In this document: in pieces, positions 2,304-63,588 of the stretch
How the letters are laid out: every line of letters starts with the position of its first letter
Numbering within the stretch: position 1 is the stretch's first letter
Origin: Mobula hypostoma
Taxonomy: Eukaryota
Assembly: GCF_963921235.1 (NCBI RefSeq)
Contig: NC_086097.1
Coordinates: forward strand, 119,786,001-119,850,000
Length of the DNA stretch: 64,000 nucleotides
Direction: 5' to 3'
Program-made: the position numbers and the translations under genes
The notes under the pieces: model-generated
Database searches by the model: none
Told to the model about the DNA's origin: nothing
The model's input: the letters and a program-made list of their open reading frames with translations, nothing else

Positions 2304-4514
2304 TTGGGATTCCTTTTTTGCGGTGTTAATAACCATGCAACCATAAAGCATCTAAAGGAGAGTGACATAGTTAATTCAGAAACAAAGGTTCTGAACTTAA
2401 AGAGGGGTAACTTTGAAGGTATGAGACGTGAATTAGCTAAGATAGACTGGCAAATGACACTTAAAGGGTTGACGGTGGATATGCAATGGCAAGCATTTAA
2501 AGGTTGCATGGATGAACTACAACAATTGTTCATCCCAGTTTGGCAAAAGAATAAATCAAGGAAGGTAGTGCACCCGTGGCTGACAAGAGAAATTAGGGAT
2601 AGTATCAATTCCAAAGAAGTAGCATACAAATTAGCCAGAGAAAGTGGCTCACCTGAGGACTGGGAGAAATTCAGAGTTCAGCAGAGGAGGACAAAGGGCT
2701 TAATTAGGAAGGGGAAAAAAGATTTTGAGAGAAAACTGGCAGAGAACATAAAAACGGACTGTAAAAGCTTTTATAGGTATGTAAAAAGGAAAAGACTGGT
2801 AAAGACAAATGTAGGTCCCCTGCAGACAGAAACAGGTGAATTGATTATGGGGAGCAAGGACATGGCAGACCAATTGAATAATTACTTTGGTTCTGTCTTC
2901 ACTAAGGAGGACATAAATAATCTTCCAGAAATAGTAGGGGACAGAGGGTCCAGTGAGATGGAGGAACTGAGTGAAATACATGTTAGTAGGGAAGTGGTGT
3001 TAGGTAAATTGAAGGGATTGAAGGCAGATAAATCCCCAGGGCCAGATGGTCTGCATCCTAGAGTGCTTAAGGAAGTAGCCCAAGAAATAGTGGATGCATT
3101 AGTGATAATTTTTCAAAACTCGTTAGATTCTGGACTAGTTCCTGAGGATTGGAGGGTGGCTAATGTAACCCCAGTTTTTAAAAAAGGAGGGAGAGAGAAA
3201 CCGGGGAATTATAGGCCAGTTAGCCTAATGTCGGTGGTGGGGAAACTGCTAGAGTCAGTTATCAAGGATGTGATAACAGCACATTTGGAAAGCGGTGAAA
3301 TGATCGGACAAAGTCAGCATGGATTTGTGAAAGGAAAATCATGTCTGACGAATCTCATAGAATTTTTTGAGGATGTAACTAGTAGAGTGGATAGGGGAGA
3401 ACCAGTGGATGTGGTATATTTGGATTTTCAAAAGGCTTTTGACAAGGTCCCACACAGGAGAGTAGTGTGCAAACTTAAAGCACACGGTATTGGGGGTAAG
3501 GTATTGGTGTGGGTGGAGAATTGGTTAGCAGACAGGAAGCAAAGAGTGGGAATAAAGGGGACCTTTTCAGAATGGCAGGCGGTGACTAGTGGGGTACCGC
3601 AAGGCTCAGTTCTGGGACCCCAGTTGTTTACAATATATATTAATGACTTGGATGAGGGAATTAAATGCAGCATCTCCAAGTTTGCGGATGACACGAAGCT
3701 GGGTGGCAGTGTTAGCAGTGAGGAGGATGCTAAGAGGATGCAGGGTGACTTGAATAGGTTGGGTGAGTGGGCAAAGTCATGGCAGATGCAATTTAATGTG
3801 GATAAATGTGAAGTTATCCACTTTGGTGGCAAAAATAGGAAAACAGATTATTATCTGAATGGTGGCCGATTAGGAAAAGGGGAGGTGCAACGAGACCTGG
3901 GTGTCATTATACACCAGTCATTGAAAGTGGGCATGCAGGTACAGCAGGCGGTGAAAAAGGCGAATGGTATGCTGGCATTTATAGGGAGAGGATTCGAGTA
4001 CAGGAGCAGGGAGGTACTACTGCAGTTGTACAAGGCCTTGGTGAGACCACACCTGGAGTATTGTGTGCAGTTTTGGTCCCCTAATCGGAGGAAAGACATC
4101 TTTGTCATAGAGGGAGTACAAAGAAGGTTCACCAGATTGATTCCTGGGATGGCAGGTCTTTCATATGAAGAAAGACTGGATGAACTGGGCTTGTACTCGT
4201 TGGAATTTAGAAGATTGAGGGGGGATCTGATTGAAATGTATAAGATCCTAAAGGGATTGAACAGGCTAGATGCAGGAAGATTGTTCCCAATGTTGGGGAG
4301 GTCCAGAACAAGGGGTCACAGTTTGAGGATAGAGGGGAAGCCTTTTAGGACCGAGATTAGGAAAAACTTCTTCACACAGAGAGTGGTGAATCTGTGGAAT
4401 TCTCTGCCACAGCAAACTGTTGAGGCCAGTTCATTGGCTATGTTTAAGAGGGAGTTAGATATGGCCCTTGTGGCTACAGGGGTCAGGGGGTATGGAGGGA
4501 AGGCTGGGTTCTGA
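2304..4514 (+). CDS. CR1 ORF2 reverse transcriptase region, uninterrupted but lacking the endonuclease; the first ~18 codons come from flanking DNA
   Basis: 736-aa ORF with [45 protein letters not shown]; element sequence begins at 2357. Confidence 0.85.
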   Translation: MGFLFCGVNNHATIKHLKESDIVNSETKVLNLKRGNFEGMRRELAKIDWQMTLKGLTVDMQWQAFKGCMDELQQLFIPVWQKNKSRKVVHPWLTREIRDSINSKEVAYKLARESGSPEDWEKFRVQQRRTKGLIRKGKKDFERKLAENIKTDCKSFYRYVKRKRLVKTNVGPLQTETGELIMGSKDMADQLNNYFGSVFTKEDINNLPEIVGDRGSSEMEELSEIHVSREVVLGKLKGLKADKSPGPDGLHPRVLKEVAQEIVDALVIIFQNSLDSGLVPEDWRVANVTPVFKKGGREKPGNYRPVSLMSVVGKLLESVIKDVITAHLESGEMIGQSQHGFVKGKSCLTNLIEFFEDVTSRVDRGEPVDVVYLDFQKAFDKVPHRRVVCKLKAHGIGGKVLVWVENWLADRKQRVGIKGTFSEWQAVTSGVPQGSVLGPQLFTIYINDLDEGIKCSISKFADDTKLGGSVSSEEDAKRMQGDLNRLGEWAKSWQMQFNVDKCEVIHFGGKNRKTDYYLNGGRLGKGEVQRDLGVIIHQSLKVGMQVQQAVKKANGMLAFIGRGFEYRSREVLLQLYKALVRPHLEYCVQFWSPNRRKDIFVIEGVQRRFTRLIPGMAGLSYEERLDELGLYSLEFRRLRGDLIEMYKILKGLNRLDAGRLFPMLGRSRTRGHSLRIEGKPFRTEIRKNFFTQRVVNLWNSLPQQTVEASSLAMFKRELDMALVATGVRGYGGKAGF

Positions 4515-4606
4515 GTTGGATGATCAGCCATGATCATAATAAATGGCAGTGCAGGCTGGAAGGGCCGAATGACCTACTCCTGCACCTATTTTCTATGTTT
4601 TCTATC
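2357..4606 (+). mobile_element. Young CR1 LINE copy 1, 5'-truncated
   Basis: Near-identical to the five other young copies; 3'UTR ends in TTTCTATG-type tail. Confidence 0.97.
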
Positions 4607-10517: not shown

Positions 10518-12431
10518 TGAAACATAGAAACATAGAAACATAGAAAATAGGTGCAGGAGTAGGCCATTCGGCCCTTCGAGCCTGCACCGCCATTTATTAT
10601 GATCATGGCTGATCATCCAACTCAGAACCCCACCCCAGCCTTCCCTCCATAACCCCTGATCCCCATAGCCACAAGGGCCATATCTAACTCACTCTTAAAT
10701 ATAGCCAATGAACCAGCCTCAACTGTTTCCTGTGGCAGAGAATTCCACAGATTCACCACTCTCTGTGTGAAAAAGTTTTTCCTAATCTCAGTCCTAAAAG
10801 GCTTCCCCTTTATCCTCAAACTGTGACCCTCGTTCTGGACTTCCCCAACATCGGGAACAATCTTCCTGCATCTAGCCTGTCCAATCCCTTTAGGATTTTA
10901 TACGTTTCAATCAGATCTCCCCTCAATCTTCTAAATTCCAACGAGTACAAGCCTAGTTCATCCAGTCTTTCTTCATATGAAAGTCCTGCCATCCCAGGAA
11001 TCAATCTGGTGAACCTTCTTTGTACTCCCTCTATGGAAAGGATGTCTTTCCTCAGATTAGGGGACCAAAACTGCACACAGTACTCCAGGTGTGATCTCAC
11101 CAAGGCCTTGTACAACTGCAGTAGTACCTCCCTGCTCCTGTACTCGATTCCTCTCGCTATAAATGCCAGCATACCATTTGCCTTTTTCACCACCTGCTGT
11201 ACCTGCATGCCCACTTTCAATGACTGGTGTATAATGACACCCAGGTCTCGTTGCACCTCCCCTTTTCCTAATCGGCCACCATTCAGATAATAATCTGTTT
11301 TCCTATTTTTGCCACCAAAGTGGATAACTTCACATTTATCCACATTAAATTGCATCTGCCATGAATTTGCCCACTCACCCAATCTATCCAAGTCACCCTG
11401 CATCCTCTTAGCATCCTCCTCACAGCTAACACTGCCGCCCAGCTTCGTGTCATCCGCAAACTTGGAGATGCTGCATTTAATTCCCTCATCCAAGTCATTA
11501 ATATATATTGTAAACAACTGGGGTCCCAGCACTGAGCCTTACGGTACCCCACTAGTTACTGCCTGCCATTCTGAAAAGGTCCCATTTATTCCCACTCTTT
11601 GCTTCCTGTCTGCTAACCAATTCTCTATCCACATCAATACCTCACCCCCAATACCGTGTGCTTTAAGTTTGCACACTAAGCTCCTATGTGGGACCTTGTC
11701 AAAAGCCTTTTGAAAATCCAAATATACCACATCTACTGGTTCTCCCCTATCCACTCTACGAGTTACATCCTCAAAAAATTCCATGAGATTCATCAGACAT
11801 GATTTTCCTTTCACAAATCCATGCTGACTTTGTCCGATGATTTCACTGCTTTCCAAATGTGCTGTTATCACATCTTTGATAACTGACTCCAGCAGTTTCC
11901 CCACCACCGACGTTAGGCTAACCGGTCTATAATTCCCCGGTTTCTCTCTCCCTCCTTTTTTAAAAAGTGTGGTTACATTAGCCACCCTCCAATCCTCAGG
12001 AACTAGTCCAGAATCTAACAAGTTTTGAAAAGTTATCACTAATGCATCCACTATTTCTTGGGCTACTTCCTCAAGCACTCTGGGATGCAGACCATCTGGC
12101 CCTGGGGTTTTATCTGCCTTTAATCCCTTCAATTTACCTAACACCACTTCCCTATTAACATGTATTTCGCTCAGTTCCTCCATCTCACTGGACCCTCTGT
12201 CCCCTACTATTTCTGGAAGATTATTTATGTCCTCCTTAGTAAAGACAGAACCGAAGTAATTATTCAATTGGTCTGCCATGTCCTTGCTCCCCATAATCAA
12301 TTCACCTGTTTCTATCTGAAGGGGACCTACATTTGTCTTTACCAGTCTTTTCCTTTTTACATATCTATAAAAGCTTTTACTGTCAGTTTTTATGTTCCCT
12401 GCCAGTTTACTCTCATAATCTTTTTTCCCCC
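10518..12431 (-). mobile_element. Young CR1 LINE copy 2, 5'-truncated, with nonsense and frameshift lesions
   Basis: (CATAGAAA)n tail at 10518-10547; split ORFs 11539-12300, 10816-11532 and 10622-10819. Confidence 0.97.
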
Positions 12432-13438: not shown

Positions 13439-16400
13439 TCTTTCTGTTCAAATATTTTTATTGTTATATTATACAGGAAAAATAACATGAGTACATAGAA
13501 GTGACAACACTTACAATGCCTCAAAAAAAACATTATCTTAAAGATTGAAAAAAAATTTGTGATAACAAAAAAAAACCTACTAAGCAGAAAAGTGAGAGAA
13601 AAAGAAAGAACCCATTAGGTGTACAACCCCGGAATCATGCGTCATACAAAAAGCTTCTAAAAATAAACATCAAACCACCAGCAAGAAATGAAAATATGCT
13701 AAAAAATTTACAATTAGATCATGGAAAAATATCAATTAACTCAAATGATAATAACGAGCAAATGAGCCCCATCTTTTCTCAATGTCAAATAAAGGTTGAA
13801 AGGTTCAACTTCTAATTTTCTCCAAACTAAGACATAGCATCACTTGAGAGAACCATTGTGACAAAGTGGGAGCTGATGTATCCTTCCACTTCAACAAAAT
13901 GGCCCTCCTAGCTATCAATGTAACAAATGCAATAATATGTTTGTCGGACACAGAAATACCATGAATATTTTGAGGAATTATTCCAAAAAGCACAGTTAAT
14001 TTATTAGGTTGTAATTTAATTTTAAGTGCTTTAGAAATTGTTGAAAAACCCAACTTCCAGACCTGTTCCAATATAGAACAAGACCAAAACATATGTGTCA
14101 GTGTATCTATCTCAGTTTTACATCTATCACAATGACTACCAACATTAGAAAAGATTTTAGAAAGTCTCTCCTTTGTCAAATGATAACAATGTACAATTTT
14201 AAATTGAATCAATGAATGGCTAACACAAATTGAAGAAGAGTTAACCAACTTCAATATCCGTATCCAATCCTCCGTCATAAAAGTCAAATTAAATTCCTTT
14301 TCCCAATCCTGTTTAATCTTAGATAAAGGATGCTTATCCTATTGTAATAATAAATTATAAATTATTCCAATAGAACCCTTAATCAAAGGATTCATACTCA
14401 TAATAGTATCTAACAGGTCAGCCTCCAATATGTAAGGAAAATTACTTAAATATTTTTTGTAAAAAATGTCTAAATTGAAGGTATTGCAGAAAGTGTGAGT
14501 ATGAAAGAGAATATTTATCAATTAATTGTTCAAAAGACATCAATCTATCTTCTTTAAATAAATCCAAAAAAGAATTAATACCTTTATTTTTCCAAAGTAA
14601 AAAAATTGGATCACACAAAGAAAGCTTTAAAAAGTAATTTCGGTAAATTAAACTACAAAGTTTAAATTTTTTAAGATTAAAAAAATTGCGGAATTGAAGC
14701 CAAATTTGTAAAGAATACTTAATCACAGGATATAAGTTTAAATTAACAACTTTAACTCATTGCATAGGTAAAGGAGCTCCCAATAACGAGGTTAAATAAA
14801 ACTGTTTTATAACTTTCAGTTCCAGGTCTACCCAAATTGGCCAATCACTCTTATCAACCCAGTATAACCAAAAAGACATATATCGCACATTAACAGCCCA
14901 ATAATACATTCTTAGATTAGGCAAAGCAAGACCTCCATCCTTTTTCAATTTTTGTAAGTAACATTTACTAATTCTTGGTCTTTTATCATTCCAAATAAAA
15001 GATAAAATAATAGAATCAATCCGATCAAAAAACTTCCTAGTCAAAAAAACCGGAATATTCTGAAATAAATATAAAAAATTCGGTAAAATCATCATTTTAA
15101 CTGTATGAATACGACCAACAAGTGAAAATGTAAGTGGACTCCATCTACTAAATAAATACTTCATAGAGTCTACTAAGGGAACAAAATTGGCTTTATAAAG
15201 ATCCTTATATTTTTTAGTAATTATCATACCTAGATATCTAAAAGAGTCTGTAACTTTCAAAGGAGTATTATCATATAGAGAGACAGAATCATTTAAAGGA
15301 AACAATTCACTTTTATTAAAATTTATTTTATATCCTGAAAAACTTCCAAATTCATTAAATAATTTTAGCAAGGCAGGAATGAATTTGTAAGGGTTAGATA
15401 TATAAACCAATAAATCATCAGTGTAAAGAGAAACCTTATGCATGGTCTCATTCACAAAAATCCCATTGATATTTTTAGCCTCACGAAGAGCAATAGCAAT
15501 AGGTTCTAATATTAAATTAAACAACAAAGGACTTAATGGACAGCCTTGCCTTGTCCCCCGTGAAAGCTGAAAAAAAGGAGACCTACAATTGTTAGTGACA
15601 ACAGTAGCAATAGGGGCTTTATATATCATTTTAATCCAATTATTAAAATTAGCACCAAAACCAAATTTCTCTAAAACATTGAATAAATATTTCCATTCGA
15701 CTTGGTCAAACGATTTTTCAGCATCCAAAGATACAACACATTGTGGAGTATTAAAAGAGGACGAATATATAATGTTAAATAGTCTCCGAACATTTGAAAA
15801 AGAATAGCGACCCTTTATAAAGCCTGTTTGGTCTTTAAAAATAATTTTACCCAAAATATTCTCCAACCGATTGGCCATTATCTTTGACAAAATCTTAGCG
15901 TCGACATTCAGTAATGAAATAGGTCTATATGAAGCACAGTCAGTAGGATCTTCATCTTTTTTAAGAATTAAAGAAATAGAAGCCTCATAAAAAGTAGTGG
16001 GTAAGTCACCTTTCACAAAAGAATCCTTAAACATTTCCAACATATACGAGAAAACAACTTTCCAAATTTTTTATAAAATTCTACAGGATAGCCATCAGGT
16101 CCTGGGGACTTAACAGATTGCACTGAAAAAATAGCTTTATGAATTTCGGCTTCAGTAATTTGACCATTGAGAGTTTTTTGATCCTCAGCCGAGATTTTAG
16201 GAAAAACAATCTTTCGTAAAAAAACATTCATTTCAGAGGAATCTACCGGACATTCAGATTTATAAAGCTCAGCATAAAAATCTTGAAAAATCTTATTAAT
16301 TTCTTCATATTCCTGAGCTAAGGTACCATCTTTCCTACGAATTTTCATGATTTGCCTTTTGGCTGCAGCCATTTTTAATTGAGATGCAAACAGTTTATTA

Positions 16401-17446
16401 TTTTTATCTCCAAAAATATAAAATTGGCTCTTTAACTTAAGCAAATATCCTTCAATGGGATGAGTTAATAACAGGTTATATTGTGATTGAAGTTCCACCC
16501 TCTGTTTAAATAAATCAGTATTGGGGGAAATTGCATAGGTATTATCTAAATCTTTAATTTGTTTTGAAATTCTATCTAACTCTGCTTTAGTTTGTTTTTT
16601 AAGTTTAGCTGAATAAGAAATAATCTGACAGGGCAGTCAGTAGCTTTGAATTCTATCGTAGATCACTTTGCTTTTTCGCGTTTCCGGGTGTGCGTGGGTG
16701 GGTTTAGAGTTAGGAGTTTTTTCCCATTGGGAGGTTCCAGAGCATGCATGCTTTTTATCTGGTTGTATTCTTCATCACCGGCATTTTTGATCATCCCGTA
16801 TTGGTATGTGCTCTGTGCATGTATAAAGTAGAATAAAATTATAGTATGGTATTTAAACGGATTAATATAAAAGTTGGAATGTACGTGGTTGGAATCATCC
16901 TATTAAACGAAAAAAGACTTTTAAAATTATAACCAATTCCAACCTAATATAATTTTTGCTCAAGAGACACATATCAGGGCGGGAGATCAAAATAGATTTT
17001 TTAGATGGTGGAATGGTTTGCAATTCCATTCTGCTTCTCAGAATAAAACAAAAAGCATGTCTATTTTTATTAAACCTAATATATTTATTCAAGAGGATAT
17101 TGAATCAGATTCTAATGGTAGATTTTTAATTGTTAAAGGAACAACCTGTAACAGAAAAGTTGTTTTGGTTAATTTGTTGTGGTCCTAACTTAGATGATCC
17201 TTTTTTTAAAAAGGTAATTGCTTTATTGCCTGATTTAAATGAATATGTGCTGATAATGGGTGGGGATTTTAATTGCTGCCTAAATCTTATGATTGATAAG
17301 AGCTCAACCAATCAGCGACTTCCAAATCAATCCGCGTCATTTATTAATTCCTTTTTGATTGATTTTGGGTTGATTGATTTGTGGCGGTATCTCCATCCGG
17401 ATAATAGAGAATATTCTTTCTTCTCACATGTTTATAAAAATTATTG
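13439..17446 (-). mobile_element. L1-clade LINE with inverted 5' segment
   Basis: Minus-strand RT ORFs (YRPISLLNVDAKI, SLDAEKSFD, GTRQGCPLSP, YTDD, C-terminal CDRC..H..WSC) at 13805-16625; plus-strand APE endonuclease remnant (SWNVRG..., MGGDFN, YSFFSH) at ~16870-17446; TSD ATTGTTTTTCTT at 13427-13438 and 17447-17458. Confidence 0.92.
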
Positions 17447-26076: not shown

Positions 26077-27121
26077 TTCAGAATGGCAGGCGGTGACTAG
26101 TGGGGTACTGCAAGGCTCAGTGCTGGGACCCCAGTTGTTTACAATATATATTAATGACTTGGATGAGGGAATTAAATGCAGCATCTCCAAGTTTGCAGAT
26201 GACACGAAGCTGGGTGGCAGTGTTAGCAGTGAGGAGGATGCTAAGAGGATGCAGGGTGACTTGGATAGGTTGGGTGAGTGGGCAAACTCATGGCAGATGC
26301 AATTTAATGTGGATAAATGTGAAGTTATCCACTTTGGTGGCAAAAATAGGAAAACAGATTATTATCTGAATGGTGGCCGATTAGGAAAAGGGGAGGTGCA
26401 ACGAGACCTGGGTGTCATTATACACCAGTCATTGAAAGTGGGCATGCAGGTACAGCAGGCGGTGAAAAAGGCGAACGGTATGCTGGCATTTATAGCGAGA
26501 GGATTCGAGTACAGGAGCAGGGAGGTACTACTGCAGTTGTACAAGGCCTTGGTGAGACCACACCTGGAGTATTGTGTGCAGTTTTGGTCCCCTAATCTGA
26601 GGAAAGACATCTTTGCCATAGAGGGAGTACAAAGAAGGTTCACCAGATTGATTCCTGGGATGGCAGGTCTTTCATATGAAGAAAGACTGGATGAACTGGG
26701 CTTGTACTCGTTGGAATTTCGAAGATTGAGGGGGGATCTGATTGAAACGTATAAGATCCTAAAGGGATTGGACAGGCTAGATGTGGGAAGATTGTTCCCG
26801 ATGTTGGGGAGGTCCAGAACGAGGGGTCACAGTTTGAGGATAGAGGGGAAGCCTTTTAGGACCGAGATTAGGAAAAACTTCTTCACACAGCGAGTGGTGA
26901 ATCTGTGGAATTCTCTGCCACAGCAAACTGTTGAGGCCAGTTCATTGGCTATGTTTAAGAGGGAGTTAGATATGGCCCTTGTGGCTACAGGGGTCGGGGG
27001 GTATGGAGGGAAGGCTGGGTTCTGAGTTGGATGATCAGCCATGATCATAATAAATGGCGGTGCAGGCTCGAAGGGCCGAATGGCCTACTCCTGCACCTAT
27101 TTTCTATGTTTCTATGTTTCT
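26077..27121 (+). mobile_element. Young CR1 LINE copy 3, 5'-truncated, 8-bp TSD
   Basis: ORF 26093-27025 (RT C-terminal half); AAAATTAG at 26068-26075 and 27122-27129. Confidence 0.97.
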
Positions 27122-27301
27122 AAAATTAGTGGATATGGAAAGGTAAAAAGGATAATCATGCGGGAGCATTTTGGTGTATTCTAATTTAGCATGTTTATGG
27201 AAATGATCAATCAGGCTTAAAAGTTCTGTACTTTATGTCAGTCTTAAGCAGTTAAAGGTCTTGAAGCAGTTACTTGAACATTTACCATGTAAAAAAAATT
27301 G

Positions 27302-31033: not shown

Positions 31034-33596
31034 TTTTTTTTTTAATTTTTTATTTTTATTTGGATAAGGAATTTACAAGTATCATGAACTTTTTTCACAT
31101 GTATAACCTTTTCCATTTTTTTATATGTGTATAAAACTATAATTATTTATACATTCCTAAGTACACATTAAGATGATATGAAACGAAATTAGAGACTTAA
31201 GTAGATAATTATGTGCAGTTGAAATCCTACTCTATTAGGCTAAGTAATGATATTAGTTGTTAAGAAAAATAATAATAATAGTGGATTAATAATAATTTCC
31301 ATATATCTCTTCTGGACCATTTCTTTCTGGCCCAAAATGTTGTATGTAAGCCTATGTAACTACCATTGTAGGTGTTTATATCCTAACTTGTTCATGTTTG
31401 CTCCTCCCCCCAAACATAATTATCCAATCCCTATGTACTTATTTCCTTAATTTTATCATTTTTTATCTCTTTCCCAAATCTTTTCCTTTACTTGTGTTAA
31501 TTCTCCATTTTCCAAAAAAAGAAAACAAGAACAGTAAACATTCAGACCAGGGGTGCTTACGTTAGCAATATTACTGTGTTGATGAGAAGAGCAGTATAAA
31601 TCATTAGGAGAGTCATCTAAAGTCTGCTGGCTTTGGGGTTATATATTCAATCCATTTATTCCAAATTTGATAAAATTTTTCTTTTTGAATTCTCAGAGAG
31701 TAAGTCATCTTTTCCATTTTAAATATTTCCAAGATAATTTCGTGCCAATCTTCTGATGTAGGTGGTATTGGATTTAGCCACTTTCTCGTGATTGATTTCT
31801 TACTTGCTGCTGAAAGGGCCTGCAGCAACTTTATATCTTTCTTCTGTTCAAGAAACAATACATGTCTCAAAGTTCAGAGGTATCTGGGTCTTAAGTACCT
31901 TAACTAATGTTCTGTGAATATCTTTTCAATATAAACTTAATTTAGGGCAATCCCAGAAAATATGGAAATGATTTGCCTCCTTGGAGCCGCACCTTCTCCA
32001 ACACGTCACGTTTGTGTCTTTATATTTTACCTGATATGGGGTCCCGAAGTATCTTATAATATTTTTCTAACAATGTTCTCTCCAAGTCAAAGAGTTAGTC
32101 GAAGACCACTGAAAGCTGCATGTTTTCCCCCAAGCCTCCTCTGAACGTACCAACCCTGCTTCTTTCTCCCACTTCTCTTTAATATACAATGTGTTTACAT
32201 TTTTAGCATGGGAGAGTGCATTTTATAATCGAGAAACTGATTTACTTGGTATTGAACTGCAAGCCGAATTCAGAATCTTGAAAAATTCTAATTCTACTGT
32301 TGATAGGTCTGTATATCTACAACTCTGGTTCACATAGTGTCGTACTTGAAGGTACCTAAAAAAGTCATTGTGTTCTAGGCCATGTTTGTCCTGCAGGAAC
32401 TGGAAACTTTGTAATACTCTTTTATGTATAAATGAGAGGTAGGTTGTAAGACCTTTCTTTATCCATAGTTCAAATCTTTTATCTCCTCTGTTGGGAAAGA
32501 ATTCAGTATCATATGCACACCATCTGAAAAGTTTTAACATGTTATTGATTCCACATGAATTAACCACCTTCTGCCATACTTTTAATGTAAGATTTATCCA
32601 GCTGTTTCTAAACTTTTCCAATTGGGCCATCAATCCTTTATCTGCTATTGAGGCCTGTAGAGGAAAACTGTCAACTAATCCAAATTCTATTTCCTTCCAT
32701 CTAGCCTTATATTCCCTATTACACCAATATAACAGGGGGGTTGTCTGTGAAGCATAGAAATAATTTCTCAAGCAAGGAAGTACCATACCTCCTCCTTCCT
32801 TCCCTAACTGTAAGGTGTTATATCAAATTCTAGGTTTCTTTCCTTGCCAGATAAAGCGGGATATCCATTTGTCTCATTCCCTGAATTGATTATCATCCAC
32901 CTCCACGGGTAAAGTCCGGAAAAGATAGAGTGACCGAGGGAGAATATTCATTTTTATGGTATTTATCCTTGAATTTAAACTTAAAAAGGGGATAAGATTC
33001 CATCTATGCATATCTGCTTTTATCTCTGAAATTAATGGCCCATAATTTACCTGTGGCAGCGTTGAAAGATCCTTCGGCAGGGTTATTCCTAAATATTTTA
33101 ATGATTTAGCTTCCCACTTAAGATCACATGTATCCTGTAGTTTTTTGGATGGCGTATAATTTAGGGACATAACCTGCGTTTTCTTTACGTTTATTTTATA
33201 ACCTGATATTTTCTCAAAGTCATCCAACAGTGTAAACAATCCTATAAATGATTTTTCTGGTTCACTCAGATAGACTGAAACATCATCTGTGAATAACGCC
33301 ACTTTCTGTTCAATCCCTGCCACCTTGATACCTTTTACAATTTTGCTCCATCTTATTAGTTGGGCAAGCGGTTCAATGTATAGCGCAAAAAGGAGAGGAG
33401 AAATTGGGCATCCCTGTCTAGTGCCTCTCTCTAAAATAAAGGAGTCAGAGAGGTCCCCATTTATCTTAATTCGAGCTGTAAGGCTGTCATGTAAAGTTTG
33501 GACTACTTTAATAAACTTTTCTTGAAAGCCGAATCTTCCTAACACTCTGTATAGTAATGCCCAACTAACTGAATCAAAAGCTTTCTCAGCGTCTAA
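31034..33596 (-). mobile_element. L1-clade LINE, 5'-truncated, 16-bp TSD
   Basis: T-rich tail at 31034; ORFs with GTRQGCPISP, LFTDD, KYLGI; GTTATGTTGAAATTGA at 31018-31033 and 33597-33612. Confidence 0.92.
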
Positions 33597-34133
33597 GTTA
33601 TGTTGAAATTGAAAAAAAAAAAGTGTTGGTGAGGCCTAATTTGGAGTATTTTCTGCAGTTTTGGTCACCTATTTACAGGAAAGATGTAAACAAATTTGAA
33701 AGAGTGAAGAGAAAACTTACACAGATGTTGCTGGACCTGGAAGACAAGAGTTATAAGGAGAGATTAAATAGGTTGGGGCTGTACTATTTAGAATGTAGAA
33801 GACTGAGAAGAGGTTTGATAGAGGTATACAAAATTATGAGGGGTAAAGATAGGGTAAATGCAAGCAGGCTTTTTCCACTGAGGTTGGGTAGGACTACAAC
33901 CAGAGGTCGTGGGTTAAGGATGAAAGGTGAGTAAGTTAAGGGGAACATGAGGGGAAACTTCTTCACTTAGAGGGTTGTCAGAGTGTGAATTGAGCTGCTA
34001 GCACAAGTGGTGCATGCGAGCTTGATTTCAAGATTTAAGATAAGTTTGGATAGGTACATGGATAGTAGGTGTATGAAGGGTATGGTCTTGGTGAAGGTTT
34101 ATGGGAGTAGGCAGTTTAAATGGTTTTGGCATG

Positions 34134-47813: not shown

Positions 47814-49598
47814 AGGTGAATTGATTATGGGGAGCAAGGACATGGCAGACCAATTGAATAATTACTTTGGTTCTGTCTTCACTAAGGAGGACATAAATAA
47901 TCTCCCAGAAATAGTAAGGGACAGAGGGTCCAGTGAGATGGTGGAACTGAGCGAAATACATGTTAGTAGGGAAGTGGTGTTAGGTAAATTGAAGGGATTG
48001 AAGGCAGATAAATCCCCGGGGCCAGATGGTCTGCATTCTAGAGTGCTTAAGGAAGTAGCCCAAGAAATACTGGATGCATTAGTGATAATTTTTCAAAACT
48101 CGTTAGATTCTGGACTAGTTCCTGAGGATTGGAGGGTGGCTAATGTAACCCCACTTTTTAAAAAAGGAGGGAGAGAGAAACCGGGGAATTATAGACCGGT
48201 TAGCCTAACGTCGGTGGTGGGGAAACTGCTGGAGTCAGTTATCAAGGATGTGATAACAGCACATTTGGAAAGCGGTGAAATCATCGGACAAAGTCAGCAT
48301 GGATTTGTGAAAAGAAAATCATGTCTGACGAATCTCATAGAATTTTTTGAGGATGTAACTAGTAGAGTGGATAGGGGAGAACCAGTGGATGTGGTATATT
48401 TGGATTTTCAAAAGGCTTTTGACAAGGTCCCACACAGGAGATTAGTGTGCAAACTTAAAGCACACGGTATTGGGGGTAAGGTATTGGTGTGGGTGGAGAA
48501 TTGGTTAGCAGACAGGAAGCAAAGAGTGGGAATAAACAGGACCTTTTCAGAATGGCAGGCGGTGACTAGTGGGGTACCGCAAGGCTCGGTGCTGGGACCC
48601 CAGTTGTTTACAATATATATTAATGACTTGGATGAGGGAATTAAATACAGCATCTCCAAGTTTGCGGATGACACGAAGCTGGGTGGCAGTGTTAGCAGTG
48701 AGGAGGATGCTAAGAGGATGCAGGGTGACTTGGATAGGTTGGGTGAGTAGGCAAATTCATGGCAGATGCAATTTAATGTGGATAAATGTGAAGTTATCCA
48801 CTTTGGTGGCAAAAATAGGAAAACAGATTATTATCTGAATGGTGGCCGATTAGGAAAAGGGGAGGTGCAACGAGACCTGGGTGTCATTATACACCAGTCA
48901 TTGAAAGTGGGCATGCAGGTACAGCAGGCGGTGAAAAAGGCGAATGGTATGCTGGCATTTATAGCGAGAGGATTCGAGTACAGGAGCAGGGAGGTACTAC
49001 TGCAGTTGTACAAGGCCTTGGTGAGACCACACCTGGAGTATTGTGTGCAGTTTTGGTCCCCTAATCTGAGGAAAGACATCTTTGCCATAGAGGGAGTACA
49101 AAGAAGGTTCACCAGATTGATTCCTGGGATGGCAGGACTTTCATATGAAGAAAGACTGGATGAACTGGGCTTGTACTCGTTGGAATTTAGAAGATTGAGG
49201 GGGGATCTGATTGAAACGTATAAGATCCTAAAGGGATTGGACAGGCTAGATGCAGGAAGATTGTTCCTGATGTTGGGGAAGTCCAGAATGAGGGGTCACA
49301 GTTTGAGGATAGAGGGGAAGCCTTTTAGGACCGAGATTAGGAAAATCTTCTTCACACAGAGAGTGGTGAATCTGTGGAATTCTCTGCCTCAGGAAACAGT
49401 TGAGGCCAGTTCATTGGCTATATTTAAGAGGGAGTTAGATATGGCCCTTGTGGCTACGGGGGTCAGGGGGTATGGAGGGAAGGCTGGGGCGGGGTTCTGA
49501 GTTGGATGATCAGCCATGATCATAATAAATGGCGATGCAGGCTCGAAGGGCCATATGGCCTACTCCTGCACCTATTTTCTATGTTTCTATGTTTCTAT
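47814..49598 (+). mobile_element. Young CR1 LINE copy 4, 5'-truncated, with one nonsense change
   Basis: ORFs 47821-48750 and 48766-49500 separated by TGG>TAG at 48748-48750. Confidence 0.97.
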
Positions 49599-51332: not shown

Positions 51333-53847
51333 TCTTCCCTGACCAATTTAGGTCATAGAAGTACCTTATGCAAGTGCACCAGCTACTGGTCTTCTGGGCT
51401 GGGCCAGTGCAAAGCTCTCATCCTAGCAGAAAAACATGTCTCTCCCATTTCTTGCTTCAGTTCAAATAAGCATAAAGTGGTGCACCTCCCCAGTTCGTTG
51501 TAAAATGTGACGTCTTTCTGCTAACATCCAATTCCATCTTTGGGTTCATCCTTTAATAATATGATATTGTGTTATGCAAATCCTCATCTCACTGGATGGT
51601 GCACACAAATATAAACTGTCAAATAAAGTAGTAGGAATGAAGCTCAAAAATGCAACAGAAGTCCTTCTATATCAGTCATTCCCACAACTCATATCAAGCC
51701 ATCATCTCTCCTCCATAGTTCTGAACTGATGCTCTCTAATATTAAGGATATTGAGCTGTGAGACCAGAATGATATGAATGTTAAAGAAGGTGCAGGCTAG
51801 AAGTACCAACTGCTTCATTTGTATGCCTTGCTGTACCTTATCAAAAGGATTTAGAGAAAGGATTGCTGAATTCTGATCATGCTTCTTGTCCACTAAAGTA
51901 TTTCATTGTTCCATTTTAATTTTTATGTACGCTCCATCCATTGAGGACAGCTTCAAGAGGAGGTGCCTGCAGAAGATGGCATTCATTGCTAAAGACTCTC
52001 ACCATCAGGAACATGCTCTCTTTGCTTTACTACAATCAGGGATGAGATACAAGGGCCATAAGACCCACAATAAATGATTCAGTAACAGCTTCTTCCCCTC
52101 TACCGTCATATTTATGAATGGTACATCAACCCATGAACACTCATAGTTCCTTTTTTTTGCACTATGGATTTTTTCTTGTAAATTATAATAATTTTTTTGT
52201 CTTTACACCATACTGCTGTTCTTCTTCTTCTTGGGTCCTCAGCTCCAAGTGAAGCATAGGCCATTGATGACCTCCCCTCTCCATCGTCCAAACTTGTTGG
52301 TATAGTTGGAGTTCGTCAATGTTTCAGTAATCCATTGTGTACTCTGTACAGGGGGTCAGCCTATACAGCTTCACCAGAGTCTTGTTGGCCGGCCTTACCT
52401 GTTTCCATCTCTCAGAACAAAGATGTAGGGCTGGACTTTGAAATGCCTTTCAGTTACTGCAAATCAAAAAATATTATTTCTATATAATATGGCCAAGTCA
52501 TTGAGCATATTTAATGTAGAGATTGATAGATGCTTGATTTATAAGAAGGTTAGAAGTTATGGGGAGAAAGGGGTTCAAAAGGTTGAATGGTGGAGCTGAA
52601 TCGATGGGCTTAAAGCCCCCCCTCCCCCCACCCACGATTCTGCTTCTATATCTTATGGTCAATACAATAAGACAGTGATAATAAATCTGAGTCCGATTCC
52701 AACGCTGGGCTTCTGTTTTTAAAAAAAAACAAGAGTTTTTGTGTTTTCTTCATAAGCAATAGTTATGCATTTTACAATGCGGTAATGTTTTAATCTGCAC
52801 TTCAAATTAAATTGCACTGTGGCACAAATATGGGAAATACTTCAATATAATTATTACCTGAGAAATCATTATATGAAAGACAAACTTCCTCAAGCTGCTT
52901 TCTTAACAGTAATTTGCAAGTTTAGCAACTTTCAAGTTCTTCTCCAACTCCCCCTCACCTCTAGCTGTTACATTCTGACTTAATATATGTTACATCACTT
53001 CACAATGAGATCAACGTTCAGACTTTTCACTGCAGAGTTGTAAAAATAACAGTTGTTTAAGCATTTTGCTATTTTCTTGCAGTTGACATTACAACTGTAT
53101 GCATAGAAATTAATGGGGAAATATGTAGAAATGATAGTTTAAGGGAGACTGATGTTTCCCAGAAAATAGAACAAATACCATGGAAGAATACAGTACAGAA
53201 ACAGGCCCTTCAGCCCATCATTTCCATTTTATTTATTTAGTGACACAGCACAGGAACACACCCTTCTGGCCCAACAAGATGTGCCACCCAATTACACTCT
53301 GTGGAGCATGCGAGGAAACCCATACGGTCATGCGGAGAATGAACGAACTCCTTACGGACAACAATGGGTACTGAACCCAGGTCACCTATCATGCTTACTG
53401 CTATGTTAGCATGCTGCGCTGCATGATGTCTGTGCCAACCACGATACCAATCTAAATAAGCTTGTCTGTGCTCCATATGCCTCTATTCCTGTTGATAAAC
53501 ATAGTCTTTCTAATTGGTATTATAAATGTAATTAACATATCTGCTTCTACCAGTTCCCGTGACAGTACATGCCAGGCCTCTACCACTCTTACAGTAAAAA
53601 AAATCCTTGCTTCATGAACCTCCTTTAAAATTTTCCCCCTCACTTTAAAATTTCACTCTCAGCTTTTGCTCCAAAGCTGCAAACACCATGTCGACATATA
53701 ACAACAATACTAATGTCCTCATCCCCTGTGATGGTATTGGGTTTGCCAAGTTCAAATTCAGATAAAGACCTTAAGCCCTATCAGATATAAATAGCCGAGT
53801 ACAGGGATGAGGTCCTGAAAGGATAATATAGGGAGCTAGAAAGGGAG

Positions 53848-54111
53848 TTGAGAAAAAGGACCGCAAAGGTAGTAATCTCGGGATTACTGCCTGTGCCACG
53901 CGACAGTGAGAGTAGGAATGCGATGAGGTGGAGGATAAATGCGTGGCTGAGGGATTGGAGCAGGGGGCAGGGATTCAAGTTTTTGGATCATTGGGACCTC
54001 TTTTGGCGCAGGCGTGACCTGTACAAAAAGGACGGGTTACACTTGAATCCTAGGGGGACCAATATCCTGGCAGGGAGATTAGCGGGGGCTACTGAGGTGA
54101 CTTTAAAATAG
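53848..54111 (+). pseudogene. CR1 ORF1 C-terminal SGNH esterase-like domain
   Basis: VVISGLLP...INAWLRDW...YKKDGLHLNPRG (DxxH motif typical of CR1/L2 ORF1 esterase domains). Confidence 0.82.
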
Positions 54112-55079
54112 AATGGTTGGTGGGTGGGAATCAAATTAAAGAGGCTAGGCGTGAGGAGGTTAGTTCACAACAGAGGGATGGGAACCAGTGCAGAGAGACA
54201 GAGGGGTGTAAAGTGAGCGTAGAAGCAAAAAGTACTAAGGAGAAAAGTAAAAGTGGCAGGCCAACAAATCCAGGGCAAGCATTAAAAAGGGCCACTTTTC
54301 AACATAATTGTATAAGGGCTAAGAGAGTTGTAAAAGAGCGCCTGAAGGCTTTATGTGTCAATGCAAGGAGCATTCGTAATAAGGTGGATGAATTGAAAGT
54401 GCAGATTGTTATTAATGATTATGATATAGTTGGGATCACAGAGACATGGCTCCAGGGTGACCAGGGATGGGAGCTCAACGTTCAGGGATATTCAATATTC
54501 AGGAGGGATAGACATGAAGGAAGGGGAGGTGGGGTGGCGTTGCTGGTTAAAGAAGAGATTAACGCAATAGAAAGGAAGGACATAAGCCGGGAAGATGTGG
54601 AATCGATATGGGTAGAGCTGCGTAACACTAAGGGGCAGAAGACGCTGGTGGGAGTTGTGTACAGGCCACCTAACAGTAGTAGTGAGGTCGGAGATGGTAT
54701 TAAACAGGAAATTAGAAATGTGTGCAATAAAGGAACAGCAGTTGTAATGGGTGACTTCAATCTACATGTAGACTGGGTGAACCAAATTGGTAAAGGTGCT
54801 GAGGAAGAGGATTTCTTGGAATGTATGCGGGATGGTTTTTTGAACCAACATGTCGAGGAACCAACTAGAGAGCAGGCTATTCTGGACTGGGTTTTGAGCA
54901 ATGAGGAAGGGTTAATTAGCGATCTTGTCGTGAGAGGCCCCTTGGGTAAGAGTGACCATAATATGGTGGAATTCTTCATTAAGATGGAGAGTGACATAGT
55001 TAATTCAGAAACAAAGGTTCTGAACTTAAAGAGGGGTAACTTTGAAGGTATGAGACGTGAATTAGCTAAGATAGACTGA
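54096..55079 (+). pseudogene. CR1 ORF2 apurinic-like endonuclease domain, ends at a premature TGA
   Basis: NARSIRNK, GITETW, VYRPP, MGDFN, SDHN; TGG>TGA at 55077-55079. Confidence 0.9.
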
Positions 55080-56654
55080 CAAATGACACTTAAAGGATTG
55101 ACGGTGGATATGCAATGGCAAGCATTTAAAGGTTGCATGGATGAACTACAACAATTGTTCATCCCAGTTTGGCAAAAGAATATATCAGGGAAGGTAGTGC
55201 ACCCGTGGCTGACAAGGGAAATTAGGGATAGTATCAATTCCAAAGAAGTAGCATACAAATTAGCCAGAGAAACTGGCTCACCTGAGGACTGGGAGAAATT
55301 CAGAGTTCAGCAGAGGAGGACAAAGGGCTTAATTAGGAAGGGGAATAAAGATTTTGAGAGAAAACTGGCAGAGAACATAAAAACGGACTGTAAAAGCTTT
55401 TATAGATATGTAAAAAGGAAAAGACTGGTAAAGACAAATGTAGGTCCCCTGCAGACAGAAACAGGTGAATTGATTATGGGGAGCAAGGACATGGCAGACC
55501 AATTGAATAATTACTTTGGTTCTGTCTTCACTAAGGAGGACATAAATAATCTTCCAGAAATAGTAAGGGACAGAGGGTCCAGTGAGATGGAGGAACTGAG
55601 CGAAATACATGTCAGTAGGGAAGTGGTGTTAGGTAAATTGAAGGGATTGAAGGCAGATAAATCCCCAGGGCCAGATGGTCTGCATTCTAGAGTGCTTAAG
55701 GAAGTAGCCCAAGAAATAATGGATGCATTAGTGATAATTTTTCAAAACTCGTTAGATTCTGGACTAGTTCCTGAGGATTGGAGGGTGGCTAATGTAACCC
55801 CACTTTTTAAAAAAGGAGGGAGAGAGAAACCGGGGAATTATAGACCGGTTAGCCTAACGTCGGTGGTGGGGAAACTGCTGGAGTCAGTTATCAAGGATGT
55901 GATAACAGCACATTTGGAAAGCGGTGAAATGATCGGACAAAGTCAGCATGGATTTGTGAAAGGAAAATCATGTCTGACGAATCTCATAGAATTTTTTGAG
56001 GATGTAACTAGTAGAGTGGATAGGGGAGAACCAGTGGATGTGGTATATTTGGATTTTGTACAAGGCCTTGGTGAGACCACACCTGGAGTATTGTGTGCAG
56101 TTTTGGTCCCCTAATCTGAGGAAAGACATCTTTGCCATAGAGGGAGTACAAAGAAGGTTCACCAGATTGATTCCTGGGATGGCAGGACTTTCATATGAAG
56201 AAAGAATGGATGAACTGGGCTTGTACTCGTTAGAATTTAGAAGATTGAGGGGGGATCTGATTGAAACGTATAAGATCCTAAAGGGATTGGACAGGCTAGA
56301 TGCAGGAAGATTGTTCCCGATGTTGGGGAAGTCCAGAACGAGGGGTCACAGTTTGAGGATAGAGGGGAAGCCTTTTAGGACCGAGATTAGGAAAAACTTC
56401 TTCACACAGAGAGTGGTGAATCTGTGGAATTCTCCGCCACAGGAAACTGTTGAGGCCAGTTCATTGACTATATTTAAGAGGGAGTTAGATATGGCCCTTG
56501 TGGCTACAGGGGTCAGGGGGTATGGAGGGAAGGCTGGGGCGGGGTTCTGAGTTGGATGATCAGCCATGATCATAATAAATGGCGGTGCAGGCTCGAAGGG
56601 CCGAATGGCCTACTCCTGCACCTATTTTCTATGTTTCTATGTTTCTATGTTTAC

Positions 56655-58619: not shown

Positions 58620-61600
58620 CCTGCAAGGGTTCCTGCTTAGGATACGAGTGAAGGCCAACGGCAGATCCGGCAGGTTCAGAACTGAACTTATGACGGCGAA
58701 GGCGGATGAGCTAGGACCCCAAATGTCAATGGCTATAGTACAGGCAGATGAATATTTGGGAAGAGAAATGGCAATTTCTTTAGTTCACCAAACAGCAGGC
58801 AATAGCAAACCACTGTTGCTAGATGCTAGATTTCCTAGAATTTATTTGCTAAGAAAACCATGGTCAAAATCACAAAATGTATCACACAACAGCTTCAAGA
58901 GGATCTTCAAGATAATTCTGAAGATGCTTCACTTGGTAGGGTTGATTCTGGTCGGCAGGGGATCACCAATCGTTATCAAGCTACTGCTCATAAAATTCAA
59001 GTAAGACAAAAGAAAATTATTGCCACTTGGAATGTAAGAACCCTGTATCAAGCAGGAAGATTGGACAATGTGATAAATGATAAAAGAGTGCTCCTTGCTA
59101 GATTCAGAGGACAACCATTTGATTTAGCAATTATACAGGTATATGCACCAACAACAGATGGAAAAAATGAGGATATAGATAAATTCTATGAAGAGCTTGA
59201 ACAAGCAAAAAATGGATGCAAATCTCAAGATGTTGTTATTGTCATAGGAGATCTAAATGCTAAAGTAGGACAAGGTGCTGATGGAAACACCATAGGAAAA
59301 TTTGGACGAGGAGAAAGAAATGAAAGGGGTGAGAAATGGGTAGAATGGTGCAAGATGAATAATCAGGTCATTATGAATACCTACTTTAAAAACCATCCAA
59401 GACGCTTGTGGACCTGGAAAAGTCCAGGTGATAACACTAGAAATCAAATTGACTTCATTACTATAAACCAAAGATTTAGAAACTCAGTGACTCAATGCAA
59501 AACGTATCCAGGTGAAGACTGTAATAGTGACCATAACCCAGTAGAATGTCATATAAAAGTAAAACTTAAAAAAACTAAAGAAGCAAAAACCTGAAGAATC
59601 CCTTGACTACTTGCAATTAATTAAAGAAGAAAACTTAAGACAAAAATTTACATCTGAAGTAAGGAATAGATTTCAAAGTCTAGAAATAGAATCTGTTGAA
59701 GATGATAGCAATCATGTAGAAATGAAATTTAACTCTCTAAAGGATGCCTTGGTAGAATCAGCAAAGTCAGTGAATCCTAATAAAGAAAAAAAGCACAAAA
59801 AATAAATGGATGACAGATGAAATCAAAAATCTAATGGAAGAAAGGAGACCAAAGAAAGCAAGTCCTATAAAATATAAGTCCTTAGATAAAAAGCTGATAT
59901 CAAAAAGCCAAAGAAGACTGGTTCAACCAGGAATGTGAGCAAATAGGAAGAATCCCTATTACTGATCCAAAAAGGTTACATCAACATAGAAACACAGACA
60001 TAAAAACATAGAAAATAGGTGCAGGAGTAGGCCATTCGGCCCTTTGAGCCTGCACCGCCATTCAGTATGATCATGGCTGATCATCCAACTCAGAACCCTG
60101 TACCAGCCTTCCCTCCATACCCTGTGATCCCTTTAGCCACAAGGGCCATATCTAACTCCCTCTTAAATATAGCCAATGAACTGGCCTCAACTGTTTTCTG
60201 TGGAAGAGAATTCCACAGATTCACCACTCTCTGTGTGAAGAACTTTTTCCTAATCTTAATCCTAAAAGGTTTCCCCTTTATTCTCAAACTGTGACCCCTT
60301 GTTCTGGACTTCTCCAACATTGGGAACAATCTTCCTGCATCTAGCCTGTCCAATTCCTTTAGGATTTTATATGTTTCAATAAGATCTCCCCTCAATCTTC
60401 TAAATTCCAACGAGTATAAGCCTAGTTCATCCAGTCTTTCTTCATATGAAAGTCCTGCCATCCCAGGAATCAATCTGGTGAACCTTCTTTGTACTCCCTC
60501 TATGGCAAGGATGTCTTTCCTCAGATTAGGGGACCAAAACTGCACGCAATACTCCAGGTGTGGTCTCACCAAGGCCTTGTACAACTGCAGTAGTACCTCC
60601 CTGCGCCTGTACTCGAATCCTCTCGCTATAAATGCCAGCATACCATTCGCCTTTTTCACCGCCTGCTGTACCTGCATGCCCACTTTCAATGACTGGTGTA
60701 TAATGACACCCAGGTCTCATTGCGCCTCCCCTTTTCCTAATCGGCCACCATTCAGATAATAATCTGTTTTCCTGTTTTTGCCACCAAAGTGGATAACCTC
60801 ACATTTATCCACATTAAATTGCATCTGCCATGAATTTTTCCACTCACCTAACCTATCCAAGTCACCCTGCATCTTCTTAGCATCCTCCTCACAGCTAACA
60901 CTGCCGCCCAGCTTCGTGTCATCCGCAAACTTGGAGATGCTGCATTTATTTCCCTCATCTAAATCATTAATATATATTGTAAACAATTGGGGTCCCAGCA
61001 CTGAGCCTTGCCCCACTTGTCACTGCCTGCCATTCTGAAAAGGTCCCGTTTATTCCCACTCTTTGCTTCCTGTCTGCCAACCAATTCTCTATCCACATCA
61101 ATACCTTACCCCCAATACCGTGTGCTTTAAGTTTGCACACTAATCTCCCGTGTGGGACCTTGTCAAAAACCTTTTGAAAATCCAAATATACCACATCCAC
61201 TGGTTCTCCCCTATCCACTCTACTAGTTACATCCTCAAAAAATTCTATGAGATTCGTCAGACATGATTTTCCTTTCACAAATCCATGCTGACTTTGTCCA
61301 ATGATTTCAGCGCTTTCCAAATGTGCTGTTATCACATCTTTGATAACTGACTCTACCATTTTCCCCACCACCAATGTTAGGCTAACCGGTCTATAATTCC
61401 CCAGTTTCTCTCTCCCTCCTTTTTTAAAAAGCGGGGTTACATTAGCCACCCTCCAATCCTCAGAAACTAGTCCAGAATCTAAAGAACTTTGAAAAATTAT
61501 CACTAATGCATCCATTATTTCTTGGGCTACTTCCTTAAGCACTCTGGGATGCAGACCATCTGGCCCTGGGGATTTATCTGCCTTTAATTCCTTCAATTTA

Positions 61601-63588
61601 CCTAACACCACTTCCCTACTAACAGGTATTTCCCTCAGTTCCTCCATCTCACTAGACCCTCTGTCCCCTACTAGTTCCGGAAGATTATTTATGTCCTCCT
61701 TAGTGAAGACAGAACCAAAGTAGTTATTCAATTTGTCTGCCATGTTCTTGTTCCCCATAAGCAATTCACCTGTTTCTTTCTGGAGGGGACCTACATTCGT
61801 CTTAACCAATCTTTTTCTTATCACATATCTATAAAAGCTTTTACTGTCAGTTTTTATGTTCCCTGCCAGTTTTCTCTCATAATCTTTTTTCCCTTTCCTA
61901 ATTAAGCCCTTTGTCCTCCTCTGCTGAACTCTGAATTTCTCCCAGTCCTCAGATGAGCCGCTTTTTTTCTGGCTAATTTGTATGCTTCTTGTTTGGAATT
62001 GATACTATCCCTAATTTCCCTTGTCAGCCACGGGTGCACTACCTTCCCTGATATATTCTTTTGCCAAACTGGGATGAACAATTGTTGTAGTTCATCCACG
62101 CGATCTTTAAATGCTTGCCATTGCATATCCACCGTCAACCCTTTAAGTGTCATTTGCCAGTCTATCCTAGCTAATTCACGTCTCATACCTTCAAAGTTAC
62201 CCTTCTTTAAGTTTAGAACCTTTGTTTCTGAATTAACTATGTCACTCTCCATCTTAATGAAGAATTCCACCATATTATGGTCACTCTTACCCAAGTCAAG
62301 AATATCACTGGTAAAAAGCTCCTCTGTTCTTCAGGTGGATGTTTGAAAGCAAAGGACAGTACCATTATCATGGAAAAATATGAGATTATGAACAAATGGA
62401 CTGAGTATATTCAGGAATTGTTTGAAGACGATCGAGGTGAAAAATCAGAAATTAAGAAAAACATTGCAGGTCCAAGTATTTTAAAATCTGAAGCTCATAA
62501 TGCAATAAATAAGATGAAGAAAGGAAAGGCAGCAGGTCCTGATGAATTAGTAATAGAACAAATTATCACCCTTAAAGATTATGGAATTGAAATTCTTACT
62601 GATTTAATCAATGACAGTTATGAGACTGGAATAATACCAGCAGAGATGAAAAAATCAGTATTTATCACTCTTCCTAAGAAAGCTGGAGCAATAGAATGTG
62701 AATTACATAGGACCATAAGTTTATTGAGTCTTATCACCAAGATACTTCAAAGAATTTTGATGACAAGAGTTAAAAGTAAGATACAAGCTGAAATAGGTAA
62801 AGAACAATGTGGTTTTGTGAAAGACAAAGGTACAGGAAATGCAACATTGATGATAAGGATACTATCAGAACAAACTATTCAAGTGCAAAAAGATTTGTTT
62901 GTTTGCTTTATCGACTACACAAAAGCATTTGATAAAGTGAAGCACAGTAAGTTATTTGAAATATTACAGAGAACTCTAGATCTAGATTTGAAAGACCTCT
63001 GCCTAGTCAGAAATCTGTACTGGAAACAAACTGCTGCTGTAAGAATAGATGGAGAAGTGAGTCAGTTTACCAAAATCAAGAGTGGCATTAGACAAGGGTA
63101 TGTTTTCTCCCCTGATTTATTTAACGTGGACTGTGGAACAATATTACAAAAAATAGGAGACATCTTGGGAATCAAAGTTGGCAGAGAAAACATCAATAAT
63201 TTCAGATATGCAGATGACACTGTGTTAATTGCAAGTATGGAGGAAGAACTACAAAACTCAATTGATATAGTTGTTGAGGAAAGTGCAAAAATGGGCCTAT
63301 CTATCAATTACAAAAAGACAGAATGTATGGTGGCATCTGAAAAGAAGGAGAATCCTATCTGCAGGCTGAGAATAAACGGGGAGGACATAAAACAAGTACA
63401 AAACTTTTGTTACTTAGGAAGCTGGGTGACATCAGATGGCAGCTGCGACATGGACATCAAAAAAAGAATAGGGATGGCAAAAGACACCTTTATGAGAATG
63501 AAGAGTATACTGACCAATACTAAGCTAGGCATGACAACCCGCCTCAGAGTACTGAAATGTTACGTTTATCCAGTTATCTTATATGGCT
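58620..63588 (+). mobile_element. RTE-clade LINE, split by a CR1 and cut at its 3' end by a HERO-like element
   Basis: IATWNVRTL, IQVYAPT, GDLNAKVG, WTWKSPG..RNQIDFI, SDHNP at 58860-59594; GKAAGPD, RTISLLS, FIDYTKAFDKV, RYADDTVL, YLGS at 62296-63588. Confidence 0.93.
59984..62295 (-). mobile_element. Young CR1 LINE copy 6 inserted in the RTE element
   Basis: CATAGAAA-type tail at 59984-60016; frameshifted ORFs 61902-62294, 60967-61824, 60717-61016 and 60090-60689. Confidence 0.97.

Follow-up and report, generated by a model that had tools for sequence, protein, structure and literature searches.

CR1 elements are widespread in vertebrates. No interspersed repeat of the chicken is more abundant (PMC11835228), and, as for other non-LTR retrotransposons, translation of the CR1 ORF2 belongs to a stated open question (PMC3894237, PMC3708506). 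LINE-1 and SART1 (reinitiation; UAAUG coupling) and the non-LTR elements that bear 2A sequences produce, from a bicistronic mRNA, a low amount of ORF2 product dependent on ORF1 translation (PMC2881922, PMC3894237, PMC3708506), an arrangement that CR1 would share. In retroviral and Ty3/gypsy Gag-Pol, in PEG10 and in coronavirus 1a/1b, an in-phase X_XXY_YYZ heptamer at the end of the structural ORF leads into a polymerase ORF in the -1 frame (Atkins 2016, PMC5009743); the CR1 junction described here has this layout and the same heptamers. Penelope-like elements (PLEs) are likewise LTR-less retroelements, with an ORF1 separable by a frameshift plus pseudoknot (Craig 2021, PMC8557442), and Neptune-like PLEs carry esterases (PMC5408684), as does CR1 ORF1. 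CR1 subgroup 7, with its type IVB ORF1 (zinc finger/leucine zipper plus esterase; Metcalfe and Casane 2014, PMC4120745), resembles the present element in the Cys motifs and SGNH domain of ORF1, the APE and RT domains of ORF2, the CR1-type 3′ end and the vertebrate host.

The window analysed, a 64,000-nucleotide stretch of Mobula hypostoma DNA (NC_086097.1, positions 119,786,001 to 119,850,000, forward strand), contains a 5′-truncated CR1-type LINE spanning about 53790-56650 on the plus strand (Table 1). The element has an SGNH esterase ORF1, an APE endonuclease followed by an RT, and a 3′ end with hairpin and microsatellite; its assignment to CR1 rests on this domain content and 3′ end rather than on an RT tree against L2. 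A 3′ hairpin and 8-nt microsatellite tail without poly(A), as found at 56585-56649, is what we take to be the CR1 3′ signature. In a profile search of the PDB, the endonuclease profile (A5) aligned with LINE-1 ORF2p from residue 6 (E 8.8e-44); a single-sequence PDB search gave no match. Among named proteins, the closest to the ORF1 remnant is a Mobula hypostoma model of 311 aa (98% identity). Full-length ORF1 homologues carry two CxxC motifs; this copy lacks the 5′ part.

Table 1. Coordinates of the features of the CR1 copy and of its ORF1/ORF2 junction.
Feature	Position in window	Strand	Evidence
CR1 ORF1, 3′ third (C-terminal SGNH/GDSL esterase part); 5′-truncated	53791..54111	+	Pfam Lipase_GDSL_2 E 3.6e-9; tblastn with P0001, residues 206-310, 93% identity
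Slippery heptamer, T_TTA_AAA in this copy and T_TTA_AAC in the family	54102..54108	+	Reading frame and Logan contigs
ORF1 stop TAG, directly 3′ of the heptamer	54109..54111	+	
G-rich tract, 6 nt past the heptamer; may stimulate slippage (as a structure or a protein-binding site) or be only Gly-rich linker codons	54115..54128	+	
78-codon linker from slip site to first endonuclease strand, open in the -1 frame only	54108..54341	+	Stops: 0 (-1), 5 (frame 0), 9 (+1)
ORF2 APE-type endonuclease, ending at premature TGA 55077-55079	54342..55079	+	Pfam Exo_endo_phos E 5.8e-13; profile A5 vs LINE-1 ORF2p
Remaining ORF2 (RT region), with ~600 nt deletion at ~56057	55080..56550	+	Pfam RVT_1; other copies in the window have 597 more bases; P0211 residues 595-795 missing
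CR1-type 3′ end: 8-bp inverted repeat (56585-56592 / 56615-56622) and three units of an 8-nt microsatellite	56585..56649	+	Read from the sequence

This copy is dead: a TAA at 53824-53826 interrupts ORF1, the TGA at 55077-55079 interrupts ORF2 and about 600 nt are gone near 56057. Any frameshift mechanism would be a property of its family. At least five further 3′ fragments of the same family, 93-99% identical, lie at 2295-4605, 10520-12430, 26537-27122, 47814-49598 and 59990-62295, none extending to the ORF1/ORF2 junction; the family is a young one. Other LINE types are also present: long RT-like frames on the minus strand at 13805-16636 and 32223-33635 (L1/Tx1-like by eye) and an endonuclease-like frame at 58839-59594 (RTE-like by eye).

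The initial annotation had proposed that a programmed -1 frameshift joins ORF1 to ORF2, and its description of the junction holds. ORF1 ends ACT TTA AAA TAG (54100-54111). The ORF2 frame, opened by the TGA at 54093-54095, is -1 relative to ORF1 and runs for 327 codons (54096-55079), and T_TTA_AAA is in phase with ORF1 directly before the stop. Codon-phased scanning of three ORF2 frames in the window (1404 positions) yielded no slippery heptamer, which argues that the one at the ORF1 end is not there by chance. As the annotation stated, the ORF2 frame of this copy has no ATG before 54747, but some relatives have one (see below). The ATG at 54747 encodes the M of MGDFN, and a start there would lose the parts aligned to N14 and E43 of the LINE-1 EN (profile alignment to LINE-1 ORF2p), regions with a catalytic role. 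One nucleotide past the ORF1 stop, the ATG at 54113 starts a +1-frame ORF of 8 codons (54113-54139, closing at 54137), which could trap reinitiating ribosomes away from ORF2. Two similar G-rich motifs lie in the linker about 57 nt apart (54115-54132 and 54172-54188); the post-slip tract may have been duplicated in frame long ago in this ray family.

Logan contigs from runs X1, X5, X9 and X12 (four of the 22 listed runs, from four organisms) were aligned over 53960-54420. Position 54108 is C in at least 99.5% of depth in 4/4 runs (436148/436819 in X1, 708604/712237 in X5, 12.4/12.4 in X9 and 44/44 in X12), and 54121 is G in more than 98% in all four, depth in these unphased contigs not being a measure of copy number. 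The window copy carries two private substitutions, A at 54108 and T at 54121; thus, the family has U_UUA_AAC followed by TAG, and a purer G run. Besides these two changes, no indel and no other variant of 10% or more occurs at 54086-54143 among those listed for the four runs, a low variation that is partly technical, because the interval is poor in CpGs and other subfamilies cease to align over the junction, where depth falls. Several loose ends of those subfamilies also run into TTTAAA. Upstream of the junction, ORF1 codons vary synonymously in the contigs; at 54037-54039, for instance, a Leu codon close by does so in 28% and 58% of depth.

Two linker variants create in-frame ATG codons: G>A at 54213 (from GTG; 20% of depth in X1, 96% in X5, 28.2/65.2 in X12 and 0/12.4 in X9) and A>T at 54238 (from AAG; 0% in X1, 13% in X5, 37/62.8 in X12 and 0 in X9). 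The changes C>T at 54150 and T>A at 54152 would create a linker stop if on the same molecule. The initial annotation had named an in-frame AUG upstream of the endonuclease as speaking against its proposal; such codons exist in some ray subfamilies, at unconserved positions, and are absent in others. Some of the ray subfamilies with a linker ATG could reinitiate.

Conservation of the heptamer was assessed with a codon-neutral search pattern, combining the esterase DGxHL motif with [L/F]-N-stop at CR1 spacing in any codons, the stop position being TRR. The pattern matched at least 66 metagenome loci and one viral locus. CR1 was called from ORF1 profile score, endonuclease matches, EN motifs or BLAST links to such loci; 13 of the 67 matches listed are CR1, namely L003, L006 (with a tail nearly equal to that of a sturgeon-labelled protein) and 11 bird-like copies from one assembly. 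Leaving out L030, which ends Phe-Asn, gives 12 Leu-Asn CR1 loci. Controls came from the other 54 listed loci, of which those with Leu-Asn-stop ends were kept and duplicates removed to yield 36, mostly bacterial SGNH proteins. Among the matches listed, T_TTA_AAC is found in 9/12 CR1 loci against 0/36 controls (Fisher p 1.3e-7) and any slippery heptamer in 9/12 against 6/36 (p 4e-4), p values that overstate the difference because the CR1 copies are not independent (11/13 from one assembly). Three of the 12 CR1 loci are without T_TTA_AAC. A fair statement is that five divergent CR1 families (ray, L003, L006 and two bird groups) all include it, and the heptamer bases are conserved at synonymous positions, beyond amino-acid need. 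Of 13 related CR1 loci, 12 have the stop directly past the heptamer and one has TGG (the pattern required TRR there); the stop is TAA in one bird family. Viral contigs gave no CR1 whether queried by ORF1, by the A2 or A4 alignment, by the endonuclease or by a QGN pattern, and the one pattern match there is non-CR1. The sole match in genome contigs is a Pseudonocardia SGNH protein; plasmids and phages gave none, and none of these sets yielded DNA from families ending QGN, KN or FF.

Both heptamer and phase are conserved across CR1 families. The first endonuclease strand is reached in 11 of 14 sequences, nine being in the -1 phase and two off (L041 and L052; L041 is 1 nt shorter than relatives 86-89% identical to it). 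The linkers fall into five groups, of 80, 122, 170-173, 233 and 260-266 nt, all 2 mod 3 and without BLAST matches between groups. The -1 phase survives linker length changes, all multiples of three. The nine in-phase loci have 11 stops in the -1 frame as against 28 in frame 0 and 58 in +1; five have none in the -1 frame, three have one or two, and a single decayed copy has seven. None of these nine has a Met in the -1-frame linker. Zero Met in five linkers would be expected in about 0.15% of cases at the ORF2 Met rate, though linker composition differs, and a chance Met is expected in 45-86% of linkers of these lengths. The predicted proteins P0208/P0209 and P0215 do have a Met upstream of the endonuclease, at differing positions. 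The ray gene model P0208 passes from esterase through Phe-Lys-Leu into endonuclease in one frame, a sixth open linker. Named hydroxyacid oxidase 2 isoform X1 in Hypanus sabinus and containing a CR1 esterase and endonuclease, it is probably a mis-annotation or a CR1 copy with joined frames.

A further line of evidence comes from the C-terminal ends of ORF1 homologues, which are LN in 17 of 21 close relatives. Clustering at 50% identity gave 150 representatives, 100 with a complete C-terminus. Of these, 67 end in Asn (51 LN, 9 GN, all of them QGN, 2 KN and 5 others) and 33 do not; LN, QGN or KN ends together account for 62. Named members are from snake, turtle, swallow, eel and sturgeon (RALN is the end in the first three), and the QGN group includes snow crab; a QGN-built query gave 26 new matches, 16 ending in GN. 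LN, GN and KN are the peptides of U_UUA_AAC, G_GGA_AAC and A_AAA_AAC, the codons of the GN and KN groups being deduced from the protein ends. These are three of the four heptamers named among the shiftiest (Atkins 2016, PMC5009743), and two other representatives carry Gly-Phe near the end, fitting the fourth. The distribution supports co-variation of ORF1 ends between peptides of different shifty heptamers; the 33 representatives with other ends may use other routes. The residue before LN is Q, K, E, M or W in one of 51, which fits a T-ending codon but does not set CR1 apart from the controls and is given no weight as evidence. P0189 and P0191 (Chionoecetes opilio) are crab homologues of the esterase ORF1, placed here by ORF1 homology; an earlier study found this ORF1 type in vertebrate CR1 and L2 subgroups only (PMC4120745).

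What might stimulate slippage is less uniform. The G-rich run lies where the initial annotation had put it, but its reading as a two-tier G-quadruplex is weakly borne out, being predicted in 4 of 14 loci (ViennaRNA). G fraction at +8 to +22 is 0.47-0.73 in 12 of 14 loci, the tract doubling as Gly-rich linker codons. Folding without pseudoknots found no strong 3′ hairpin in ray or bird loci (z about 0 or positive; +1.0 for 54109-54200 of the window copy, with its private G-tract change). No duplex stood out when 54112-54138 was paired with the rest of the copy (-18.0 kcal/mol for the best, -17.7 for the next), a weak null because the copy lacks about 600 nt and has the private change in the tract. 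L003 (445-467), without a G tract, has a 9-bp hairpin about 10 nt past the heptamer (z -2.7), by folding a putative classical stimulator layout. One plant virus requires a stop 3 nt past the shift site (Atkins 2016, PMC5009743), by analogy a possible precedent for an adjacent stop helping the shift; the same review knew of no natural G-quadruplex frameshift stimulator.

The comparative evidence (the family heptamer U_UUA_AAC, its presence in five families, the kept phase and the co-variation of ORF1 ends) supports the esterase-EN-RT fusion first proposed, and programmed -1 frameshifting in CR1 is, in our view, very probably the correct reading. Resting on the observed heptamer, its phase and conservation, the open -1 frame and the lack of a conserved AUG, the following course can be proposed. 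Most ribosomes would terminate at the TAG or TAA closing ORF1 and release ORF1p (~311 aa here). A minority would pause while the P site holds Leu-tRNA (UUA) and the A site Asn-tRNA (AAC), possibly because of the adjacent stop and the 3′ G-rich tract (the hairpin in L003), slip one base back on U_UUA_AAC, bypass the stop and read the variable linker into endonuclease and RT. Slippage itself, as well as its efficiency, is inferred. The product would be an ORF1-linker-EN-RT fusion of an estimated ~1,300 aa (311 + ~1,010), made at a fixed low ratio like Gag-Pol; it may stay whole, as no protease domain was found. A broader reading, to which we give an even chance, is that -1 frameshifting is the ancestral and general ORF2 mode of esterase-ORF1 CR1, spanning decapod crustaceans, which would use G_GGA_AAC, and the rays, sturgeon, reptiles and birds that carry U_UUA_AAC, with a protease-free fusion and a pause set by the adjacent stop and G-rich tract instead of a pseudoknot; the membrane-binding esterase would therefore travel with the RT. 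The boldest sub-case, a natural G-quadruplex stimulator, is doubtful.

Under termination-reinitiation, the mode demonstrated for LINE-1 and SART1 (PMC2881922, PMC3894237), ribosomes would resume translation at a linker AUG or near-cognate codon and make a free ORF2p, with the heptamer kept for another reason. Candidate sites exist, both near-cognate (54117, 54120 and 54213) and, in most of the X5 depth and a fifth of that of X1, as the ATG at 54213; P0208/P0209 and P0215 have their linker Met. However, the start position is unconserved, Met is absent from all nine in-phase linkers, and the ATG just past the stop (54113) opens a +1 frame that soon closes. Moreover, neither a constant -1 phase relative to the stop nor invariant synonymous codons that spell a shifty heptamer are required for reinitiation, and we hold this route to be distinctly improbable. 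Alternatively, both routes may operate, frameshifting being ancestral and linker-AUG subfamilies reinitiating as well to give free ORF2p. That the heptamer is fixed in X5, where the 54213 ATG is nearly fixed too, fits such a combination, but a linker Met needs no function given how often one is expected by chance. This mixed mode appears unlikely; in AUG-bearing subfamilies it is compatible with the main frameshift reading.

The Leu-Asn end might also be kept for the sake of the esterase, its codons reflecting AT-rich bias or a non-decoding RNA or DNA signal. Bacterial SGNH proteins do often end Leu-Asn at equal spacing, a trait for which the pattern selected; yet the controls use 22 different heptamers and never T_TTA_AAC. 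The penultimate Leu, Gly and Lys interchange, sharing an XXA codon and not chemistry, and, since 33/100 related esterases end otherwise, the fold needs no Asn there. We consider this explanation very improbable indeed. Two signals of the non-decoding kind were rejected: a splice acceptor at TAG (there is no polypyrimidine tract upstream, and one bird family has TAA) and an endonuclease target look-alike as the cause of heptamer conservation.

If programmed frameshifting is true, the predicted CR1 ORF2 protein is an esterase-EN-RT fusion, not an ORF2p N-truncated at an internal Met, and the ORF1:ORF2 ratio is set as in retroviruses. The signal would also tell which CR1 copies are really intact, and CR1 would offer a large set of natural frameshift signals, along with a candidate stimulator other than a pseudoknot.

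A full-text literature search found no report of CR1 frameshifting; 1990s CR1 papers, Repbase Reports and supplements lie outside it, and a passing suggestion there is quite possible. The word frameshift occurs 0 times in the main texts of PMC3708506, PMC2881922, PMC3905857 and PMC4120745, the last being the description of subgroup 7, from which the present reading differs in this respect. CR1 is named 0 times in 300,000 of the 449,034 characters of PMC5009743. LINE-1, SART1 and the 2A elements yield a separate ORF2p, whereas for CR1 a fusion is predicted, the ORF2 frame here lacking a coupled stop-start. PLEs form a separate class with a GIY-YIG endonuclease, unlike the CR1-type APE-RT of this copy. 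Compared with Gag-Pol-type systems, CR1 is non-LTR, the stop lies directly past the heptamer and no conserved 3′ pseudoknot was found (folding without pseudoknots). Within the literature searched, CR1, a common LINE family, would represent a known mechanism in a new host class, its recoding signal appearing real and deeply conserved.
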